Assembly (NCBI GenBank): GCA_963816185.1
Contig: CAWFJJ010000001.1
Span: forward strand, 1 to 64,000
Reading direction: 5' to 3'
From: Thermoanaerobaculia bacterium
Lineage (GTDB): Bacteria > Acidobacteriota > Thermoanaerobaculia > UBA5066
DNA: 64,000 bases
The notes under the pieces were generated by a model, which was not told where the DNA came from, made no database searches, and saw only the letters and a program-made list of their open reading frames with translations. Shown here piece after piece: positions 29,336 to 38,510 of the stretch (position 1 is the stretch's first letter; each line of letters opens with the position of its first letter). A program made the translations under genes and the position numbers.

Positions 29336-30117
29336 GCGCGCCCGTGCTGTCGGTCAGCGGCCTCCGCCTTTCGCGTGGAGCCGTGGAGGTCCTGAAGGGA
29401 GTGGACCTTCTGCTCGCGCGCGGCGAGCTCGTGGCTCTCATGGGTCCTTCGGGCTGCGGAAAGACGACGATCCTCCGGGCGATCACGGCGCTCGAGCCGT
29501 TCCAGGCCGGCACGATTCTGGTGGACGGCGTGCCGCTGAACCCGGGGCCGATGCCGCGCGAAGCCGCGCTCGGCGCGCTGCGCCGCAAGGTGGGGCTCGT
29601 CTTCCAGCTTCATTGTCTCTTCGACCACCTGTCCGCGCTCGACAACGTCACTCTCGCTCCCATCCACGCCCTGCGCCATTCGCGCTCCGAGGCGGAGGCG
29701 CGAGCGCTCACACTGCTCGAAGGGCTCGGCGTCGCGGCCCGCGCACGCTCGCGGCCCCGAGAGCTCTCCGGGGGCGAGGCGCAGCGCGTCGCGATCGCGC
29801 GAGCCCTCGCCGTCGACCCCCCGCTTCTCCTGATGGACGAGCCCACCGCGTCCCTCGATCCGGCGCGCCGGAACGAGCTCGGAGACTCGCTGGAGGCCTT
29901 GATCGCCCAGGGACGGACTCTTCTCCTCGCGACCCACGACGTCGATTTCGCCCGGGACTACGCCACGCGCGTCCTGGTGCTCGCAGGCGGAGCCGTGGTC
30001 GAAGACGGTGCGCCCGGCGAGGTCCTCGTGCACCCGAGGCACCCTGCCACGGTTCAGCTCCTGCAGTCGAAAGGGAAGAAGGCCTCGTCGGTGAAAGGTG
30101 AGGGTCCGTCCCTCTGA
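29314..30117 (+). CDS. Amino-acid ABC transporter ATP-binding protein
   Basis: GPSGCGKTT Walker A, LSGGEAQRVAIARAL, LLMDEPT, ATHD; start uncertain (29314-29344). Confidence 0.93.
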   Translation: MERALGLSAPVLSVSGLRLSRGAVEVLKGVDLLLARGELVALMGPSGCGKTTILRAITALEPFQAGTILVDGVPLNPGPMPREAALGALRRKVGLVFQLHCLFDHLSALDNVTLAPIHALRHSRSEAEARALTLLEGLGVAARARSRPRELSGGEAQRVAIARALAVDPPLLLMDEPTASLDPARRNELGDSLEALIAQGRTLLLATHDVDFARDYATRVLVLAGGAVVEDGAPGEVLVHPRHPATVQLLQSKGKKASSVKGEGPSL

Positions 30118-30151
30118 ACGGGCCGAAAACGCCTCCCCGATCGCCTCCAGG

Positions 30152-30160
30152 TGCTACCCT
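30152..30160 (+). promoter_or_regulatory. Candidate extended -10 element (TGC-TACCCT) of the amidase-actin-SPOR operon
   Basis: TGn-TANNNT 12 nt upstream of ATG 30173 in the short intergenic gap. Confidence 0.4.
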
Positions 30161-30172
30161 TTTTGAGAGCAC

Positions 30173-31165
30173 ATGGCCACCGCGAGGCGCCTCAGGCAGT
30201 CGATCCTCAAGGACGCGATCCGCGAGAACGTGGACGTCATCGAGAACCGCCTGCCCAGGGGGCTCCGGCGCTCCGACCGCTGGCGCCGGATCCTTCTTCG
30301 GACGTCGGTCTTCGTCGTCGTGCCGCTCGCCCTGTTCCTCTCGATCAACGCGCTGACGACGGGCCGCGGCGAGCGCACGGACGTCCTCGTCGTGTCGTCT
30401 CCGTCTGCGGCGCCTGCGGCGCCCGCAAGCGTGATCAATGCTCCGAACGGCCTCGAGCCCTCGCTCTTCCACCTCGAGGTGCGCTCCATCGTGATCGACC
30501 CGGGGCACGGGGGAGCGGATCCCGGAGCGTCCGCCTCCGGCGTGTCGGAAAAGGACGTGACGCTCGACGTGGCGCGCCGCCTGAGAGACCTCCTCGTCGC
30601 CCAGAAGGTCGCCGTTTCGCTCACGCGGGAAGGGGACACGACGCTGTCGCTGCGCGACCGTGTCATCCTCGCGAACGAGAAGAAGGCCGACCTCTTCGTG
30701 TCGATCCACGTGAACTCCCTTCCGGGCGTGAAGGAGAAGCGCGGCATCGAGACGTACTTTCTCGGTACGACGACCGATCCGCACGTCGAGCGGCTCGCTC
30801 TCGACGAGAACCGGACCTCGGGCTACACGATGGCCGATTTTCGGCGTCTTCTCGAGGGTGTCCTCGCGGATTCGCGACAGGGCGAGTCCCGGAAATTCGC
30901 CGAGGCCGTCCAGGGAGGGCTCGTGACCTCGCTCCGCCCGTTCGTGCCCCGGCTCGATGACCGGGGCGTGAGGAGCGCGCCGTTCGCCGTCCTCATCGCC
31001 ACGGAGATGCCGGGCATCCTCGCGGAGGTGTCGACGGTCTCGAACGAGGACGAAGCGCGCCATCTCCGGGACCCCGAGTATCGTCAGCAGATCGCACGGG
31101 CCCTTTCGAACGGGATCCTCGCGTTCGCGGAGTCGCGGAACCATCCGCCCTCCAAACGGAGTTGA
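30173..31165 (+). CDS. N-acetylmuramoyl-L-alanine amidase (Amidase_3), N-terminally anchored
   Basis: IVIDPGHGGADPG, EKDVTL, ADLFVSIHVNS, RGIETY, APFAVL..PGILAEV; hydrophobic segment VFVVVPLALFLSINAL. Confidence 0.93.
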   Translation: MATARRLRQSILKDAIRENVDVIENRLPRGLRRSDRWRRILLRTSVFVVVPLALFLSINALTTGRGERTDVLVVSSPSAAPAAPASVINAPNGLEPSLFHLEVRSIVIDPGHGGADPGASASGVSEKDVTLDVARRLRDLLVAQKVAVSLTREGDTTLSLRDRVILANEKKADLFVSIHVNSLPGVKEKRGIETYFLGTTTDPHVERLALDENRTSGYTMADFRRLLEGVLADSRQGESRKFAEAVQGGLVTSLRPFVPRLDDRGVRSAPFAVLIATEMPGILAEVSTVSNEDEARHLRDPEYRQQIARALSNGILAFAESRNHPPSKRS

Positions 31166-31166
31166 C

Positions 31167-32186
31167 ATGAGCGGGAAGAAGGACGTTCTCCACGTCGGCA
31201 TCGACCTCGGCACGTCGCGCAGCGCGATCACGGCGTCGAACGGCGTGCATCACGTCGTCGAGAGCTACGTGGGCTGGCCCCTCGACATGGTCGCGAAGAA
31301 GGTCGTGAAAAAGTCGATCCTCTTCGGCGCCGAGGCCCTCGAGAACCGGCCGATGCTCGACTTGCACCGCCCGCTCGAGCGCGGCCTCATCAAGCAGGGA
31401 TCGGCGAAGGACGAGGAGGCGGTGCACGAGCTGTTGAAGCACCTCATCTCGCTGGCCGGCAGAAAAGACGGCCAGGTCGTCCATGCCGTCGTGGGCGTGC
31501 CGGCGGAGGCGCTCCGCGTTTCGCGGCAGCACTTGCGCGGCGCCGTCAAGGGGATCGCCGACGCTCTTCTCATCGTGTCCGAGCCGTTCGCGGTGGCCTT
31601 CGGGATGGACGCGCTCCTCCATACGATGATCATCGACATCGGAGCGGGCACGACGGACTTCTGCGTCATGAACGGACGCTACCCCACGGAGGACGACCAG
31701 CGCACGCTGACGCACGCGGGCGACTCCATCGACGAGCAGCTCATGGCGCTCGTGAAAACGAAGCATCCCGAAGGACGCTTCTCGATCCACATGGTTCGCG
31801 ACTGGAAAGAGAAGAACAGCTTCATCGGCAGCGCGCCGGGGCCGGTCGTCGTGCGGTTCCCCGTGAAAGGCAAGCCGGCCGACGTGGACATCACAGCCGA
31901 GATGAAGAAGGCCTGCGAGAGCGTCGTCGGTCCCATCGCCGAGACCATGCTCGACCTGCTCTCGAAGGTCGAGCCCGAGTACCAGGAGAAGGTGCAGCGA
32001 AACGTCGTCCTCGCGGGCGGCGGCTCGCAGATTCCCGGGCTCGCCGCCGCGCTCGAGAAGTCGCTTGCCGAGCTGGGCGGAGGCCGCGTACGCGCCGTCG
32101 AGGACCCCGTCTTCGCGGGGTCGAACGGCGGTCTCGCCATCGCGTTGGATGCGCCGGAAGGCGACTGGGAGCCGCTCTCGGCATGA
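31167..32186 (+). CDS. Bacterial actin homolog, MamK-like
   Basis: Actin motifs GIDLGTS, VSEPF, IIDIGAGTTDFC, VLAGGGS; segments VGWPLD, LDLHRPLERG, GVPAEA, DQRTLTHAGDSIDE, EPEYQ match MamK as I recall it better than MreB. Confidence 0.85.
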   Translation: MSGKKDVLHVGIDLGTSRSAITASNGVHHVVESYVGWPLDMVAKKVVKKSILFGAEALENRPMLDLHRPLERGLIKQGSAKDEEAVHELLKHLISLAGRKDGQVVHAVVGVPAEALRVSRQHLRGAVKGIADALLIVSEPFAVAFGMDALLHTMIIDIGAGTTDFCVMNGRYPTEDDQRTLTHAGDSIDEQLMALVKTKHPEGRFSIHMVRDWKEKNSFIGSAPGPVVVRFPVKGKPADVDITAEMKKACESVVGPIAETMLDLLSKVEPEYQEKVQRNVVLAGGGSQIPGLAAALEKSLAELGGGRVRAVEDPVFAGSNGGLAIALDAPEGDWEPLSA

Positions 32187-33794
32187 GCCCGATCGACAGC
32201 GGCTTCCCGCGCGATTCCGGAGTGAAGAGGAGGATGCTCCCGTCGGTGACCGACGTCGTGCGCGAGCTCGCGAAGGTCATCTCCGCGGATCCCGCGGTGC
32301 TCTTCAAGGGCGCGCGGAGCGTCGTCGCCGAAGAGCTCGCGAAGGTGAAGCAGGGTTTCGAGGCGGCCCCGCTCGACGTCCTCGTCAAAAGGGCGCGCCT
32401 GCAGCTCGAGCGGGACGGCGAGGCGACGCCCGTTTCCGATCCCGCGCCTCCGCGCATGCCCGTCTTCCCGGCGCGGCAAGGGCCCCCGCGCGAGACGCCG
32501 GGACCCTCTTCGGCCCACGCGGGCGGTGCCCCCGTGAAATCGCCGGCCTCGGACGATCCCTTTCAGGACGTCGCGTCCCGAGCAGAGCTGAACTGGGAAA
32601 AGGAGATCCCGATCCAGGCCGAGGATGCGCCCTTTCGGTCCGCCATCATTCCCATCCCGTACAAGGCGCGCGCGCCGCTCGAGATCTCCCAGCCGATCGA
32701 AGCGCCGCCGAAGGCCGCCCCGGAGCCGAAGCCGCCGCCCGTGCCGAAGCCGCAGCCGGAGCTGGAGCTGGATTTCGCAAGGCCCCGGTCCGCACCGGCC
32801 GCGCCCGAGCCGCCCGCACAGACCCTCAGGCCCGTGCCCCCGAAACCCGCGGCGGCGATGTCCGAGCCGCCGGCGCCCAAGGCAAAGCCCGTGTCTCCTG
32901 AGCCGGAGCCCGAAAAGCCGTTGCCGCGCCCTGCGGTCGCGTTCGCGCCCGCCATCCCGCTCGTGAATCCGCGCGAACCCGAGGTCGTGGAGCCGATCTC
33001 CCCGCCCGCGGTGGTCCCTCTGCCGCCCGGCCCCGAGCGGTTCCTGAGGGCGCCGACATCGCCGGTGCGACACGAGCCCGCGGTGAGGTCCATGCCGGAG
33101 ATTCCTCCATCCGAAGAGACTCTCGAGGACCGCGACAACACCCAGCCGGCCATGGAGGAGTTCAGGTTCAAGGCGGCGGAGCGCCCGGCCCCTGCTCCGG
33201 CGCCCGCTCGCTCGAGCCGCACGGGCTGGATCGCGGCGATCTTGGGAGTCCTTGCGATCGGAGCAGGCCTTACCTGGGCCGTGCGCGAGGGCGTCTTCAA
33301 GAGCGGGATCCTGAGGAGCGCCCCACCCGCCGCGCAGCAGGAGTCCGACGCGACGCCTCCCGCGAGCGCCGTGCCCGCGCCGGTGCCCACGGCTGCCCTG
33401 GTACCTGAAGAGAAGCCGGCGGCTCCGCCGCCGAAGGCCCTTGCCGCGCCGGCGAAGACAGCCGGCCGCCGGTCCTCCCTCGGGTGCCGCGGTCCCGAAG
33501 GGCCGCGCGGCGGTGCTCCTGACTCCCGACTGGGCGGGGAAGCCCATCGTCTACGTCATCCACTTCTCGTCGACGAAGGATCGCGAGGGCGCGGAGAAAG
33601 AGGCGCGGAAGCTCGGCGCCGCGCTCGGCGCTCCCGCACACGCCGTCGAGGTGGATCTCGGCGAAAAGGGGATCTGGTACCGCGTCGTGATCGGCGAGTT
33701 CAAAGACGTGGACTCCGCGCGCGCGTTCCGCGCCGAGCTCGAGGCGAAGAAGACGCCCGGCATGGGCTTCGTCTACGAGATGCGGGGGCGCTGA
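32183..33794 (+). CDS. Pro-rich single-TM protein with C-terminal SPOR domain (apparent +1 frameshift near 33460-33470)
   Basis: ATGA overlap with the actin gene; long Pro/Glu-rich region; TM GWIAAILGVLAIGAGLTWAV; SPOR-like YVIHFSS..A..EARKL..KGIWYRVVIGEFKD..ARAF lies in the next frame (33441..33794). Confidence 0.75.
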
Positions 33795-33799
33795 CGGCG

Positions 33800-35019
33800 G
33801 CGAAAAGCGCGTCGGCCACCAGCGATCGCGCGGGCAATGCGTTGCGATATCGCATCTTGCTTGCATTGATGCTCCTCGCGGTACGGAGATGGTGACCGCG
33901 ATGGCGGTGATTTTTGTCGCGGTGTTGGGCTCGTGGAGCGTTTGGCAGCATCGGCGGACCGGCCCGTGGGTGCTCGTTTCGCAGAAGGGGCCGCTCGTCC
34001 TCCAGTTCGGCAACAATCCCAATGCGAACGGTACGTACAACGCAACACTGAAGCCGGTCGTCTCACCGGCTGGCTGGGAATTCATCCAGGCGCGCCCTTG
34101 GATGGCGGCAAAGCTCGCCGTGAGGAAATTCGCGTACTTCTTCGGCTTCCTGAAGGACGGGTGGAACGTGCCACGTGCGTCGGCGCTGCTCATCGCACGA
34201 TTGACGTTTGGCGCGGTCTCGCTCGTCGTGTGCGAGGCGCTCATGCGAAGCACGGCATCGGTGTTTGCGCTGGCGGGCGCCGTCGTGATCCTCGCGACTC
34301 GTCGACTGCGCAGCGAGCTTTGGGTTCTCCCCGCCGTGATCGGCGCGACACTGGGTCTGCACGTCGTGTCGATCTCCTCGCACCGATTCGCGATCCCCGT
34401 GCTTCCGGTGCTTTTTCTCCTCGCGGGGATCGCCGTTGCGACCGGTGCGCATTGGTTATTGCGGCGCGTTCCCGCCCTGATGCTTTGGGCCGGGCTGTTC
34501 GTGTTCACCGCGTGGGCGGGGGTGGCTGCAGCCTGTCATCCAAACGTGCACGCGCGCGTTGAGGGCGAGGACCTCGATGGAAACCTCGCAGACGACGTCG
34601 TCGACGAACGGGCGAGCAATGGGCACGCTCGTTACGCGGACATGGGCCGAGGCCAGCGCGGGATGGCCATCGTGACGGACGAATTCCTGCCGAAAGGGAG
34701 GTTTCGGCTGACGCTCGATTTGCGTGCCGACCGGGCAGGTGAGGTGGCAGAAGTAACGATGCCAATGGAGGGAGGGAGAGACGCATGCAGGGAGATGTTG
34801 CGTTCATCTGGCCGAGCTCGTTACGAACGGGTCATCGTGGACGGCATGCTGCCTGCGGACACGTCGGTGAAGGTGATCGTCACCAGCAATGGTGTCGCCG
34901 ATGTTTGGCTCGACGGGCTTTACATCGAAGCGGGCCTACGGGACAGAATGAAAGGCGACCTCTTCGGCAATGTGCACGTCGAGGAGCTCGTCTTCGTGAG
35001 CCGCGGCACCGCGCCTTGA
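33800..35019 (+). pseudogene. Truncated or internally deleted GT-C (ArnT-like) membrane protein
   Basis: ORF 33889..35019 begins mid-family (W..R.TG..VLVSQKG..GNNPNANG; RFAIPVLP); a short hydrophobic N-terminal-like piece (LRYRILLALMLLAV) lies in another frame; atypical codon usage. Confidence 0.5.
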
Positions 35020-35045: not shown

Positions 35046-35074
35046 TTGACATCTGATGCGTGATGCGTGATGCT
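35046..35074 (+). promoter_or_regulatory. vapBC promoter/operator: TTGACA -35, GATGCT -10, three tandem TGATGC(G/T) repeats
   Basis: TTGACA 35046-35051, 17 nt spacer, GATGCT 35069-35074, 6 nt to ATG; heptamer repeats 35054-35074. Confidence 0.7.
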
Positions 35075-35080
35075 GTTCGC

Positions 35081-35308
35081 ATGAGGACGACACTCGAGAT
35101 CGACGACGACGTCTTGCAGGCGGCGAAGGAGATCGCGGCCAACCGCTCGACCACGGCCGGTCGAGTCCTCTCGGAGCTGGCGCGAAAAGCGCTAGAGCCT
35201 GGAAGATCGCCGCGCGTGCGCAACGGTGTTCCGCTGATTCCTCGCCGGCCGAAGGGGAGCGTTCGCCCGACGATGGCTCTCGTCAACCGGCTCCGGGACG
35301 AGGCGTGA
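35081..35308 (+). CDS. vapB: Type II TA antitoxin, VapB (ribbon-helix-helix)
   Basis: MRTTLEIDDDVLQAAKEIA..TAGRVLSELARKAL..RNGVPL..VNRLRDE; GTGA overlap with the PIN gene. Confidence 0.9.
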   Translation: MRTTLEIDDDVLQAAKEIAANRSTTAGRVLSELARKALEPGRSPRVRNGVPLIPRRPKGSVRPTMALVNRLRDEA

Positions 35309-35748
35309 CGCGCGTCGCCCTCCTCGACGTCAACGTCCTCGTCGCGCTGTTCGATCCTGATCACGTGCACCACGAAGCCGCGCACCGGTGGTTCGGCGGC
35401 AACCGTCAGGCGGGCTGGGCCACGTGTCCGATCACCGAGAACGGGCTCGTGCGGATTCTTTCGAACCCCGCATACATGGCCAGCCCCGAGACGCGGGGAG
35501 CGATCATCCGTCGCCTCGGCGAGTTCTGCGCGAGCGGTGGTCACGTCTTCTGGCCGGACGAGATCTCGCTTCGGGACCCCGGTCTTTTCAGGTGGACCGC
35601 GCCCGTAGCTCATCAGAAGCTGACAGACGTCTACCTGCTGGGTCTTGCCAGGAGCAAGACTGGGAGACTCGCCACATTCGACCGGGGCATCCCTGCCGCG
35701 GCCGTGGTCGGAGCCGAGCGGGGAACGCTCGAAGTGATCCCGGCCTGA
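35305..35748 (+). CDS. vapC: Type II TA toxin, VapC PIN-domain ribonuclease
   Basis: LLDVNVLVAL..HVHHEAA, WATCPITENG, TDVYLLGLA, LATFD. Confidence 0.92.
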   Translation: MTRVALLDVNVLVALFDPDHVHHEAAHRWFGGNRQAGWATCPITENGLVRILSNPAYMASPETRGAIIRRLGEFCASGGHVFWPDEISLRDPGLFRWTAPVAHQKLTDVYLLGLARSKTGRLATFDRGIPAAAVVGAERGTLEVIPA

Positions 35749-35862: not shown

Positions 35863-36741
35863 TCAGAACGACGGCTGGAAAGTCTTGATGACGTCCGCGA
35901 CGGTCGGCGCCGGTTTGCCGGCGAGCGCGGCGACCTTGACGGCGGCGAGGCGGTCGAGGAGGGTGGGCGCCGAAACTTCGTAGAGAAGGCCCGTCGTCAT
36001 GATCTCCGTCTCGCGCGTGTACGCGAGCGCCGCCGCGCGCGACGAGGCGTCGTGGTTCTCGGGGAGCTGCCTCTGCTTCGCCTTGAGGGTCTTGAACAGG
36101 TCGTCGCCGCGCCACGTGACGCAGGGAGACATGACGTTCAGGAACGCGAAGCCCCTGTGCGAAAGGGCTTTCACCATGAGCTCGACGGTACCCTTGACGT
36201 CGCCCGAGAAGGTGCGCCCGACCCACGTCGCCCCGAACGAAATCGCGAGCTCGCAGGGGTCGACCGCGGGCTCGGGGTTGCCGTAGTGCGTGGATTTCGT
36301 CTTGTCGCCGGCGGGGGTCGTGGGCGCGGCCTGCCCCTTCGTGAGGCCGTAGATCTCGTTGTCCATGAGGATGTAGGTGACGTCCAGGTTTCGCCTTGCG
36401 GCGTGCATGAAGTGGTTGCCGCCGATCGCGATGCCGTCGCCGTCTCCGCCCACCGCAATGACCCTGAGGTCCGGCCGCGCGACCTTGACTCCCGCGGCGA
36501 GCGGGATGGCGCGGCCGTGGAGGCTGTTCACGCCGAACGTGGCGACGTAGCCGGGAAGGCGCGACGAGCAGCCGATGCCCGACACGACGACGGTCTCCCA
36601 GGGCTTCACCTGCAGCTCGGTGAGCGCGCGGTAGAGGCCGGTCAGGACGCCGAAGTCGCCGCAGCCTGCGCACCAGACGGGCTTCAGCTCGGTCTTGTAG
36701 TCGGCGGGCTTGAACTCGGGGAGCGTGGCGGTTTCGCTCAT
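35863..36741 (-). CDS. korB: 2-oxoacid:ferredoxin oxidoreductase beta subunit
   Basis: WCAGCGDF, SGIGCSS, HGRAIP, GGDGDG..IGGNH, DNEIYGLTKGQ, SPCVT. Confidence 0.93.
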   Translation of the reverse strand: MSETATLPEFKPADYKTELKPVWCAGCGDFGVLTGLYRALTELQVKPWETVVVSGIGCSSRLPGYVATFGVNSLHGRAIPLAAGVKVARPDLRVIAVGGDGDGIAIGGNHFMHAARRNLDVTYILMDNEIYGLTKGQAAPTTPAGDKTKSTHYGNPEPAVDPCELAISFGATWVGRTFSGDVKGTVELMVKALSHRGFAFLNVMSPCVTWRGDDLFKTLKAKQRQLPENHDASSRAAALAYTRETEIMTTGLLYEVSAPTLLDRLAAVKVAALAGKPAPTVADVIKTFQPSF

Positions 36742-38510
36742 GCGGGCACCTTTTCCGAGACGTGTTCGGCCGCGAGGAGCGCGACGATCTCCGCATCCAC
36801 TTCGGCGACGGTCAGGTGCTTGCCGCCCGACCTCTTGAAGACGTGCGTGCGCTCGGCGGGCAGGTCGATGACCGTGCGGAGGTATTTGTAGAACTGCGCT
36901 GCGTACGAGAGCTCGACGACGAGGATGTTCTTGACGCCTTTCAGGAAAGCTTCGAGCTCCTTCTTCGGGAACGGATAGATCATCTGAGGCACGAAGGCGG
37001 CGACCTTCTGGCCACGCGCGTTCGCGCGCCGCACGGCCTCGCGCACGACCCCTTTCGAAGAGCCCCAGCACAGGATGCCGATGTCCGCGTTCTCCGGGCC
37101 GTAACGCCGGTGGAAAGTGTGGGCGTTCCGGATGGGGAGGAGCTTGCGGTAGCGCTTCTCGTTCATCTTCTCGTGAAGGAGAAACCCGGAGCCGGGGCTG
37201 CCCTCTTCGTCGTGCTCGAGGCCGTTCGTCTGGTAGATCCCGCCCTTGATGCCCGGGCGCGCGATGGGCGAGACGCCGTCTGCGGTCTCCCGGTAGCGGT
37301 GGTAGCCGGTCAGCTCCTCGGGGGACGGAAGGCGCCGCTCGCGCACGGCGTGGACGAGGGACGCCGGGTCGAAGGTCTCCCGCCGCTGCCCGACGAGCTG
37401 GTCGGAGAGCACGATGACGGGGATCTGATACTCCTCGGAGATGTTGAAGGCTTCGACGGTCGTGTGGAAGCAGTCTTCCACGTCCGAAGGGGCCAGTACG
37501 ACGCGCGGCGCGTCGCCGTGGCCGGCGAAGACCGCCTGGAAGAGATCCGACTGCTCGCTCTTCGTGGGAAGGCCGGTGGACGGGCCCCCGCGCTGAACGT
37601 TCACGATGACACAGGGGAGCTCGGCCATCGACGCGAGGCCGAGCATCTCGGTCATGAGCGAGAGCCCGGGGCCGGAGGTGGCCGTCATCGCCTTCTGCCC
37701 CGCGAAAGACGCGCCGAGGACGGCGCCGATCGCGGAGAGCTCGTCCTCCGTCTGTGAGAGCGAGCCGCCCATCTTCGGAAGCCACTCGTCGAGGAACATG
37801 AGGATTTCGGTGGAGGGGGTGATGGGGTAGCCCGCGAAGTAGCGACAGCCCGCGTGGAGGGCCCCGATCGCGGTCGCTTCGTTACCCGACATGATGACCT
37901 TGACAGGGCCCGGCGTGAAGTGGAGCTGGCGCTCCGGCATCGGCGGGAGCGTCTGGCCGAGGAGATAGCCGGCTTCGAACGCTTTCAGGGCGCCTTCGCC
38001 GACGGCCGCTTTCTTCCGCCCGAAGCGGGAGACGACCGCGCGGCGAAGCGTGGCCGCGGGCAGGCCGAAGAGGGCCGTGAGGACACCGAGTCCGACGAGA
38101 TTCTTCGATCCCTTCGCGCCGGAATCCGTGGACAGCTTTCCGAAAGGCAGCTTGATCCAGACCGCGTCCGCGCCGAGGCCGAGGTCCTCGGGAGTGCGGG
38201 CGACGGGATCGGCCTCGTCCGACAGGACGACGGCGTTCTTCACGGGCGTGCACTCGCCTTTGAAACGGCCGAAGTCGGCCCAGCTGAAGACCACGAGAAC
38301 GTCCGCGCCGTCGCCGGATTCGTAGATCGGATCCCCACTGAGGCGGACGACGCAGGAGGATTCGCCGCCTCGGATCTGCGGGCCGTAGGCCTCGGTCTTG
38401 AGAACGTTGAGCCCTTCGCGCGCGGCGGCCTGGGCCAGGACGTCGCCCATCGTGACGATTCCGTCGCCCCCGGCGCCGACCATGGCGATGGTGAGATCTC
38501 GTTTCGGCAT
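36738..38510 (-). CDS. korA: 2-oxoacid:ferredoxin oxidoreductase alpha subunit (gamma-alpha fusion)
   Basis: GAGGDG, QIRGGES, YPITPSTE, QTEDE, TSGPG, QRGGPSTGLPTKSEQSD. Confidence 0.93.
   Translation of the reverse strand: MPKRDLTIAMVGAGGDGIVTMGDVLAQAAAREGLNVLKTEAYGPQIRGGESSCVVRLSGDPIYESGDGADVLVVFSWADFGRFKGECTPVKNAVVLSDEADPVARTPEDLGLGADAVWIKLPFGKLSTDSGAKGSKNLVGLGVLTALFGLPAATLRRAVVSRFGRKKAAVGEGALKAFEAGYLLGQTLPPMPERQLHFTPGPVKVIMSGNEATAIGALHAGCRYFAGYPITPSTEILMFLDEWLPKMGGSLSQTEDELSAIGAVLGASFAGQKAMTATSGPGLSLMTEMLGLASMAELPCVIVNVQRGGPSTGLPTKSEQSDLFQAVFAGHGDAPRVVLAPSDVEDCFHTTVEAFNISEEYQIPVIVLSDQLVGQRRETFDPASLVHAVRERRLPSPEELTGYHRYRETADGVSPIARPGIKGGIYQTNGLEHDEEGSPGSGFLLHEKMNEKRYRKLLPIRNAHTFHRRYGPENADIGILCWGSSKGVVREAVRRANARGQKVAAFVPQMIYPFPKKELEAFLKGVKNILVVELSYAAQFYKYLRTVIDLPAERTHVFKRSGGKHLTVAEVDAEIVALLAAEHVSEKVPA

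Follow-up and report, generated by a model that had tools for sequence, protein, structure and literature searches.

The window, as the whole analysed stretch of 64,000 nucleotides is called here, comprises positions 1 to 64,000 of contig CAWFJJ010000001.1 (GenBank assembly GCA_963816185.1) of a Thermoanaerobaculia bacterium (Acidobacteriota). At positions 31167 to 32186 of its forward strand it encodes an actin-like protein that is a non-magnetotactic member of the wider MamK family and belongs to a distinct orthologous group, defined by a gene for a peptidoglycan amidase directly upstream. The best reading of these data, to which we give an even chance, is that a cytoplasmic MamK-family filament positions or regulates the periplasmic amidase through a helix at the amidase's own N-terminus; in this reading the actin is unconnected with magnetosomes. 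A MamK relative beside a wall amidase in a non-magnetotactic soil bacterium suggests an undescribed way to steer wall remodelling from inside the cell. The features of the gene pair are as follows (HMM, hidden Markov model; ORF, open reading frame).

30173..31165, + strand: membrane-anchored N-acetylmuramoyl-L-alanine amidase, 330 residues, AmiA/B/C type with regulatory insert (Pfam, PDB)
30182..30247, + strand: cytoplasmic N-terminal helix motif, residues 4-25 including Asn19, predicted docking peptide (local HMM, alignment, complex prediction)
30290..30355, + strand: hydrophobic segment, residues 40-61, after a basic stretch; predicted signal anchor or possibly signal peptide (translation)
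30488..31120, + strand: Amidase_3 catalytic domain PF01520, 165.6 bits (Pfam)
31167..32186, + strand: MamK-family actin-like ATPase, 339 residues, amidase-linked clade (ORF, Pfam, NCBIfam, PDB alignment, trees)

The actin ORF that a preliminary description of this DNA had singled out is complete: it begins with ATG and specifies 339 residues of an actin-fold ATPase, in a window whose G+C content is 63-73%. All motifs quoted in that description were located in the translation in the same order, starting at residues 11 (GIDLGTS), 35 (VGWPLD), 64 (LDLHRPLERG), 137 (VSEPFAVAFG), 157 (DIGAGTTDFC), 177 (DQRTLTHAGDSIDE) and 269 (EPEYQ), and the C-terminal tryptophan is Trp 334, near the end of the protein. 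MamK was the best structure match in the PDB (5ljw, 5jyg, 5ljv; E 6e-74, query residues 5-337), and the residue-by-residue alignment to 5ljw reproduced the full-length likeness that had been claimed, including the MamK counterparts quoted there. In this alignment Glu139 and Asp157 of the query fall on the catalytic Glu143 and Asp161 of MamK, which PMC5059902 describes as necessary for ATP hydrolysis and for the dynamics of the filament. The window's actin probably forms filaments. Among the 18 distinct PDB sequences matched, BeeR (8r2n) was second-best (E 4e-45), and MreB reached E 1.4e-11.

The comparison of family HMMs suggested in the preliminary description placed the MamK model far above those of BeeR and MreB. 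The NCBIfam MamK model NF040964 scored 376.0 bits (E 1.4e-112), a near miss of its cut-off of 400; relatives in the same clade straddle this cut-off, P0123 passing with 425.2 bits and P0121 failing with 392.7. When the model was run against the whole genome, the window's gene was the sole strong match (376.3 bits). BeeR (NF053558) scored 216.8 bits against a cut-off of 530, and two MreB models scored 71.1 (cut-off 293) and 58.5 (cut-off 365.75). The Pfam matches reflect the generic fold (MreB_Mbl 77.7 bits, Actin 44, Alp7A_like_C 18.2). The MreB-typical DLGTANT is missing, as had been noted, and DLGTSRS stands in its place; the canonical MreB of the same genome carries DLGTANT. A grouping inside MreB, Mbl or ParM was not seen, since NCBIfam, PDB and the trees described below all put the protein in the wider MamK family. 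The protein search scored 8000 candidates, of which 4974 were at E <= 0.001; proteins 91-95% identical to the actin, from Thermoanaerobaculia or Acidobacteriota metagenome bins, bear the source name 'rod shape-determining protein'.

Gene neighbourhoods were compared across 89 loci, comprising the window, eight relatives and the best 80 of 219 confirmed relatives (one genome per species); the species scan was seeded by a 10-sequence actin alignment. A same-strand Amidase_3 gene lay directly upstream of the actin in 47 of the 89 loci, with hit-to-hit gaps of -20 to 181 nucleotides. It was present in 47 of the 47 loci that had upstream DNA and an actin sharing 48.6% identity or more with the query, and in 0 of the 40 loci whose actin was 48.1% identical or less; L051 and L054, which also fall in the higher identity range, hold only 1 and 381 bases of upstream DNA and are untestable for the amidase. 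The pair spans at least six phyla, its carriers being labelled Acidobacteriota, Nitrospirota, Thermodesulfobacteriota, Pseudomonadota (Chromatiales), Rhodothermota, Aminicenantes, Binatota and Myxococcota. The linkage of the two genes is strict across phyla, and amidase and actin are the conserved core of the module. Pairwise identity among the actins correlates with that among the catalytic domains of their amidases (r 0.88, 31 pairs). The pair from genomes labelled Binatia and 'Deltaproteobacteria' (L066, L075) falls among Acidobacteriota for both proteins, which fits movement of the amidase-actin pair as a unit.

Within the query's own lineage, the actin was found in 24 of 24 sampled genomes of the same genus. 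In all of these, and in the eight fetched relatives, it lies between the amidase and a gene for a SPOR-domain protein. It was also present in five of seven genomes of a second family of the order (the unpublished genome G030 among the carriers) and in none of nine in a third family. In an even sample of genomes from within the phylum it was detected at E <= 1e-80 in 25 of 301 genomes, mostly of the query's class. In the window a single base separates the amidase stop codon (31163-31165) from the actin ATG, and the SPOR-gene ATG at 32183 overlaps the actin stop codon as ATGA. From this spacing, the three genes appear to be translationally coupled in one operon. A scan of positions 29900-34200 for sigma-70-like promoters returned 0 sites, such a scan being uninformative for this phylum.

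MamK-family actins without an upstream amidase were also encountered. About 30 genomes at the Planctomycetota loci (L059-L109) carry an actin 41-48% identical to the query and no amidase, and its neighbours in L059, L064 and L074 are mostly without an NCBIfam match. Three loci of marine Poseidoniales archaea (L100, L101, L107) encode an actin of the MamK family that shares 43-45% identity with the query (match at 9001-10005 in L100), next to thiolase and aldolase genes and likewise without an amidase.

Trees were built from 86 locus actins, the actin domains of 69 representatives and the MreB of the genome. The representatives came from 188 obtained at E <= 1e-30 in an exhaustive search, those shorter than 320 residues or partly covered being excluded, as were the partial locus matches L051, L072 and L103. 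In the FastTree phylogeny all 45 amidase-linked locus rows and two representatives without genomic context formed one clade of 47 (support 96), which includes no locus lacking the amidase. A quick IQ-TREE run (LG+C20, 96 hand-picked rows) recovered the amidase clade with 27 rows and a Shimodaira-Hasegawa-like approximate likelihood ratio test (SH-aLRT) value of 91. Support for the branching order among the main clades is low, and the two trees disagree on it.

The phylogeny called for in the preliminary description did not group the protein with the MamKs of magnetosome clusters. MamKs with magnetosome-type neighbours (L097, L098, L087, L069) fall elsewhere, the last three in loci that hold genes for a MamB/M-like cation diffusion facilitator (CDF), FeoB and HtrA. 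The MamKs of L087, L092, L097 and L098 form a clade of their own (support 100), the top scorers of the MamK model (P0162 508, P0211 472, P0205 446) form another group, and BeeR-like rows branch outside. Of the proposal that the protein is a non-magnetotactic member of the MamK clade, membership in the wider MamK family stands; the clade itself is separate from that of the magnetosome-cluster MamKs.

Three further MamK-family arrangements were noted. P0205 is a 768-residue fusion of a full FtsZ (351.5 bits) and a MamK domain above cut-off (446.2 bits). P0132-P0149 form a MamK-family clade, with support 99 in both trees, whose members carry N-terminal extensions of 190-900 residues; Pfam found no domain in the extensions of any of the eight fused MamK-like representatives tried, five of which belong to this clade (P0132, P0135, P0137, P0141, P0145). 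In an Aegiribacteria bin, L080:3614-6505 (+) encodes a 964-residue protein combining PDZ, HtrA-like and weak MamP-like parts with a membrane pyrophosphatase; the MamK encoded 2.5 kb downstream of it is the sister of the one from an Omnitrophota magnetosome-cluster locus.

The upstream amidase was compared with Pfam and the PDB. Amidase_3 was its sole Pfam match (164.4 bits on the protein, residues 106-316), and an AMIN septal-targeting domain was not found in that search. The match places 211 residues on a 174-position model, and the best PDB matches, AmiB 3ne8 (E 8e-30), AmiA 8c2o and AmiC 4bin, align in one stretch through the insert; CwlV/CwlD-type enzymes align in two stretches. In AmiA/B/C-type amidases this insert is autoinhibitory. 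At least two further Amidase_3 genes are present in the genome, so the window's amidase is a specialised paralogue.

Residues 1-39 of the amidase are predicted to be cytoplasmic and are followed by the hydrophobic stretch at 40-61, a variable linker and the catalytic domain; a hydrophobic stretch occurs at the same place in 31 of 31 aligned amidases. Of the 47 amidase ORFs, 36 carry the N-terminal motif according to an HMM grown from the first 45 residues of the window's amidase. The 11 misses comprise five ORFs cut by contig ends, one that is frameshifted and five that have diverged; two of these five match a regular expression for the motif, and three show it whole or in part by eye. Asn19 is invariant in all 31 aligned full-length amidases, as are the catalytic residues. 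Pairwise identity averages 0.36 over residues 5-27, 0.24 and 0.22 over the next two segments, and 0.51 over the catalytic domain.

A complex of the actin (31-row alignment) with amidase residues 1-40 (31 rows in the same order) was then predicted, as one prediction. The interaction prediction score from aligned errors (ipSAE) was 0.78, 0.78 and 0.81, and the best of three controls reached 0.45, the other two giving 0.00. Among solved complexes 58 of 80 pass the ipSAE mark applied, as do 2 of 110 mismatched pairs, counts that hold only roughly here because our own alignments were supplied. The runs share at least 81% of contacts, with a predicted local distance difference test (pLDDT) value of at least 63 for the partner. 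The predicted contacts on the amidase (residues 4, 7-16, 18-20, 22-23 and 25) are exactly the conserved motif. Those on the actin are residues 120-124, 134-151, 170-172 and 325-339, Asn19 touching actin residues 134-136. By actin homology we take these regions to be the helix following the catalytic glutamate, the loop that follows the second phosphate-binding hairpin and the helix at the C-terminus, and the contact surface would correspond to the groove between subdomains IA and IIA. Arg124 occurs in 89% of the amidase clade, the other MamK relatives having L, I or V at this position; Arg171, Tyr172, Leu134 and Ala329 are likewise clade-specific interface residues. The model supports, and does not show, binding of the amidase helix to the actin.

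Downstream of the actin, the window encodes a proline-rich protein with a C-terminal SPOR domain, and the statement that no mreC or mreD follows the actin was borne out. The features of this gene are as follows.

32183..33794, + strand: gene for a bitopic SPOR-domain protein, with a one-base frameshift in the assembly (ATGA overlap, G+C content at third codon positions (GC3), relatives)
32234..32416, + strand: conserved cytoplasmic N-terminal domain of about 61 residues (local HMM, 14 loci)
33227..33283, + strand: predicted transmembrane segment, a 19-residue hydrophobic stretch (translation)
33455..33459, + strand: one-base insertion, at about 33457, by comparison with three relatives; upstream of the SPOR domain (DNA alignment, frame reading)
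33525..33776, + strand: SPOR domain (Pfam 39.8 bits, cut-off 21; coordinates from local HMM)

The GC3 coding frame switches near 33400, and both halves of the gene keep a coding signature. The gene lies in one frame in four of eight relatives (L023, L024, L028, L029); the intact homologue in L023 has 584 residues, with the SPOR domain at residues 505-570 (38.9 bits) and a hydrophobic segment ahead of it. In the public contigs of four runs (X1-X4) no near-identical piece bridges 33442-33471, the best run holding 0.41 of the sampled words. The extra base near 33457 could have arisen in the assembly or by recent mutation; a recent or artefactual frameshift is favoured because the GC3 pattern is preserved and the SPOR part is 89% identical. 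A bitopic topology with a cytoplasmic N-terminus seems probable from the translation. Against the ftsN model TIGR02223 the protein scored 18.8 bits, below the cut-off of 107.65.

The N-terminal domain of the SPOR protein gave no Pfam match and was found in 14 loci, all of the query's order-level group. Twelve of these (the window and 11 others) also hold the SPOR domain, and the remaining two (L030, L031) end before it. Pfam searches of 54 chosen downstream ORFs at 29 more distant loci returned varied families, with SPOR only in L050, where a Nitrospirae gene (L050:1906-3261, +) encodes a receiver protein with a C-terminal SPOR domain after the amidase-actin pair, without the N-domain. In a search for distant SPOR proteins with local HMMs, the profile built on the window's group matched no loci beyond the 12 of that group and that of L050 only L050; both profiles are weak and may have missed SPOR genes elsewhere in the distant loci. 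The SPOR gene is a lineage-specific addition to the module, acquired at least twice. SPOR domains bind peptidoglycan glycan denuded of peptides, and such an addition makes sense if the product of the amidase matters.

The proposed mechanism can be set out as follows. The actin would be cytoplasmic, ATP-dependent and filament-forming, and the amidase would be a periplasmic enzyme of AmiA/B/C type held by an N-terminal anchor in the inner membrane. Its helix of about 22 residues would protrude into the cytoplasm and dock in the IA/IIA groove of the actin, so that the filament would set the place or the time at which the amidase cleaves peptides off the glycan strands. In the query's lineage the periplasmic SPOR domain of the bitopic protein would bind the product of the amidase, denuded glycan, and the conserved cytoplasmic N-domain of that protein may also reach the filament. 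The three proteins would form an inside-outside loop like that of FtsA, FtsN and amidase at the E. coli septum. The module would presumably serve cell separation or cell shape, and the localisations given here are presumptive in the same way.

Several points weigh against this mechanism. E. coli AmiA and AmiC are substrates of twin-arginine translocation (Tat), and the hydrophobic segment of the window's amidase is perhaps a cleaved signal peptide, in which case the link to the actin would be lost after export. The interface is no better conserved within the clade than the rest of the actin (0.74 and 0.72, respectively), the assignment to the IA/IIA groove was made by homology and not from coordinates, and one control of the complex prediction came as high as 0.45. 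In IQ-TREE the clade has an unstarred support of 91, with a weak backbone. The window's copy of the SPOR gene carries a frameshift, and beyond the query's order the gene is not conserved. In filaments the groove is often taken by the next subunit, so the peptide might bind monomers or one end only. Helices bound in this groove have already been solved for ParM-ParR, crenactin-arcadin-2 and actin-WH2 (PMC5173319), and the prediction may therefore lean on remembered complexes.

Two alternatives accept the gene pair and explain it otherwise. The shared operon of actin and amidase could reflect one common task, for instance in cell separation or the turnover of the envelope, without contact between the two proteins, the motif serving another cytoplasmic partner. 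Gene linkage alone is no proof of contact, only 7 of 44 blind-picked neighbours pass the complex-prediction test, and the highest control applies here as well; however, the linkage holds in all 47 testable loci from several phyla, the contacts in the model fall on the motif and on actin residues particular to the clade, and the actin is the sole cytoplasmic protein conserved beside the amidase. We consider this alternative unlikely. The actin could also bind the amidase precursor before or during export, to hold, proof-read or deliver it, the helix being an extended n-region of a signal peptide and the two proteins parting after cleavage. The predicted contact fits such a role equally well, and in the window's genus the basic stretch before the hydrophobic segment contains paired arginines and the segment ends I-N-A. 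Neither the paired arginines nor an A-x-A-like end is conserved in the 31 amidases (L047, L060 and L052 are without them), however, and a filament-forming ATPase with intact catalytic residues would be an odd chaperone, which leaves this role decidedly unlikely.

The remaining alternatives concern the actin itself and were weighed against the rest of the genome (5.09 Mb in 30 contigs, 94.9% complete). For a true magnetosome MamK, whose cluster would lie in the unassembled 5% or be too diverged, speak the MamK score of 376 near the cut-off of 400 and the incompleteness of the genome. Around the actin, as had been described, there are no magnetosome genes, the neighbours being an ABC transporter, the amidase, the SPOR protein and a VapBC pair. 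The further suggestion that such genes might lie elsewhere in the genome did not hold up. With models taken from the verified cluster of L097, in which MamK (476 bits) lies amid MamE-like, MamM/B-like and MamN-like genes, core magnetosome genes were not found by the MamB, MamE, MamO and MamN models (MamI, MamL, MamQ, MamA and MamP were not searched). The best scores stayed far below the cut-offs (MamB 95.5 of 350 bits, MamE 153.9 of 800, MamO 95.3 of 800, MamN 34.6 of 500), were of the generic CDF and HtrA level and were scattered over different contigs, and 11 to 13 of 14 non-magnetotactic control genomes gave matches alike, below cut-off. With amidase and SPOR flanks in 24 of 24 genus genomes and the cluster-verified MamKs in other clades, this identity was rejected and its probability is close to negligible. 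A DNA-segregating actin of the ParM/Alp kind, or a second MreB-like shape determinant, would account for the actin fold and the weak Pfam matches to MreB_Mbl and Alp7A_like_C. Against an MreB paralogue stand MreB models far below their cut-offs and the separate canonical mreB, which had been proposed as a search target and was found on contig C29 (487.7 bits to MreB_Mbl) with MreC about 400 nucleotides downstream (103.8 bits). Against a ParM-like role stand the chromosomal location of the gene, its presence in all 24 sampled genomes of the genus, the lack of an adjoining adaptor gene and the absence of ParM from the NCBIfam matches. Both were rejected as highly improbable.

The amidase-linked actin was compared with known systems. 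MamK of Magnetospirillum (5ljw, 5jyg) is the closest solved structure, with a full-length alignment and shared catalytic glutamate and aspartate, but the window's actin lies in a separate clade, without a magnetosome cluster, and its conserved partner is a peptidoglycan amidase. BeeR (8r2n) is likewise a MamK relative from non-magnetotactic bacteria without magnetosomes, of the Verrucomicrobiota (PMC11929497); in contrast to BeeR, the window's actin falls below the BeeR model cut-off and BeeR-like rows lie outside its clade, and no amidase partner is reported for BeeR. Only about eight residues precede the core of the window's actin (the BeeR match starts at residue 8), so it has no long disordered N-terminal domain like that of BeeR. 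ParR with ParM, arcadin-2 with crenactin, and WH2/thymosin with actin resemble the prediction made here in placing a short amphipathic partner helix in the IA/IIA groove (PMC5173319). Here, however, the helix would be the cytoplasmic N-terminus of a membrane-anchored periplasmic enzyme, and ParR and arcadin-2 have no sequence likeness to it.

The E. coli divisome contains a loop of FtsA, FtsN, AmiA/B/C and SPOR domains. It shares with the module a cytoplasmic actin-fold protein, a bitopic SPOR protein and an amidase of AmiA/B/C type, but the window's actin is MamK-like and not FtsA, the amidase itself carries the cytoplasmic tail, and the genes form one putative operon. In the MreB-RodZ elongasome, too, bitopic membrane proteins connect a cytoplasmic actin with enzymes acting on periplasmic peptidoglycan; MreB guides synthases, whereas the module pairs an actin with a hydrolase. 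It is possible, although we put the chance somewhat short of even, that the module is a third actin-guided wall machine beside MreB (side-wall synthesis) and FtsA (septum), with a MamK-family filament holding a hydrolase by its cytoplasmic tail. If so, the pattern of wall cleavage would be written from inside the cell by a two-gene unit passed among at least six phyla. How potentially lethal wall hydrolases are aimed is an open problem, to which AMIN targeting domains and the activators EnvC and NlpD are known answers. It would be a new principle if a hydrolase were anchored to an actin filament through a cytoplasmic tail of its own. The docking idea is directly testable, as it concerns a 22-residue peptide with one invariant asparagine.

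Non-magnetotactic relatives of MamK have been published before: besides BeeR, the respective reports describe a filament-forming MamK-like protein in Saltatorellota (10.1101/817700) and mamK-like genes in giant sulfur bacteria (10.1101/2022.04.11.487978). The literature searched contained no report connecting a MamK-like actin with an amidase or with a SPOR protein, most subscription journals and supplements lying outside the search. What is new is the conserved amidase neighbour, with the SPOR protein in the query's lineage, which the preliminary description had overlooked. If the proposed mechanism is true, it would give a function to a large and widespread protein group now annotated 'rod shape-determining protein MreB', would show that MamK-like actins are no markers of magnetotaxis, and would bear on the origin of the magnetosome cytoskeleton. 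If, moreover, the amidase clade is sister to the other MamK relatives, as in the weakly supported IQ-TREE topology, the magnetosome actin may derive from a cell-wall cytoskeleton.

Further downstream in the window, an ORF of 376 residues with several hydrophobic stretches and no Pfam match lies at 33889-35019 (+). It is followed at 35060-35748 (+) by a likely VapB-VapC pair with a 4-base overlap (VapB_antitoxin 20.9 bits, cut-off 23.4; PIN 29.5 bits). Two genes for 2-oxoacid:ferredoxin oxidoreductase lie at 35863-38510 on the opposite (-) strand, one combining POR, POR_N and PFOR_II domains and the other encoding the TPP-binding subunit.

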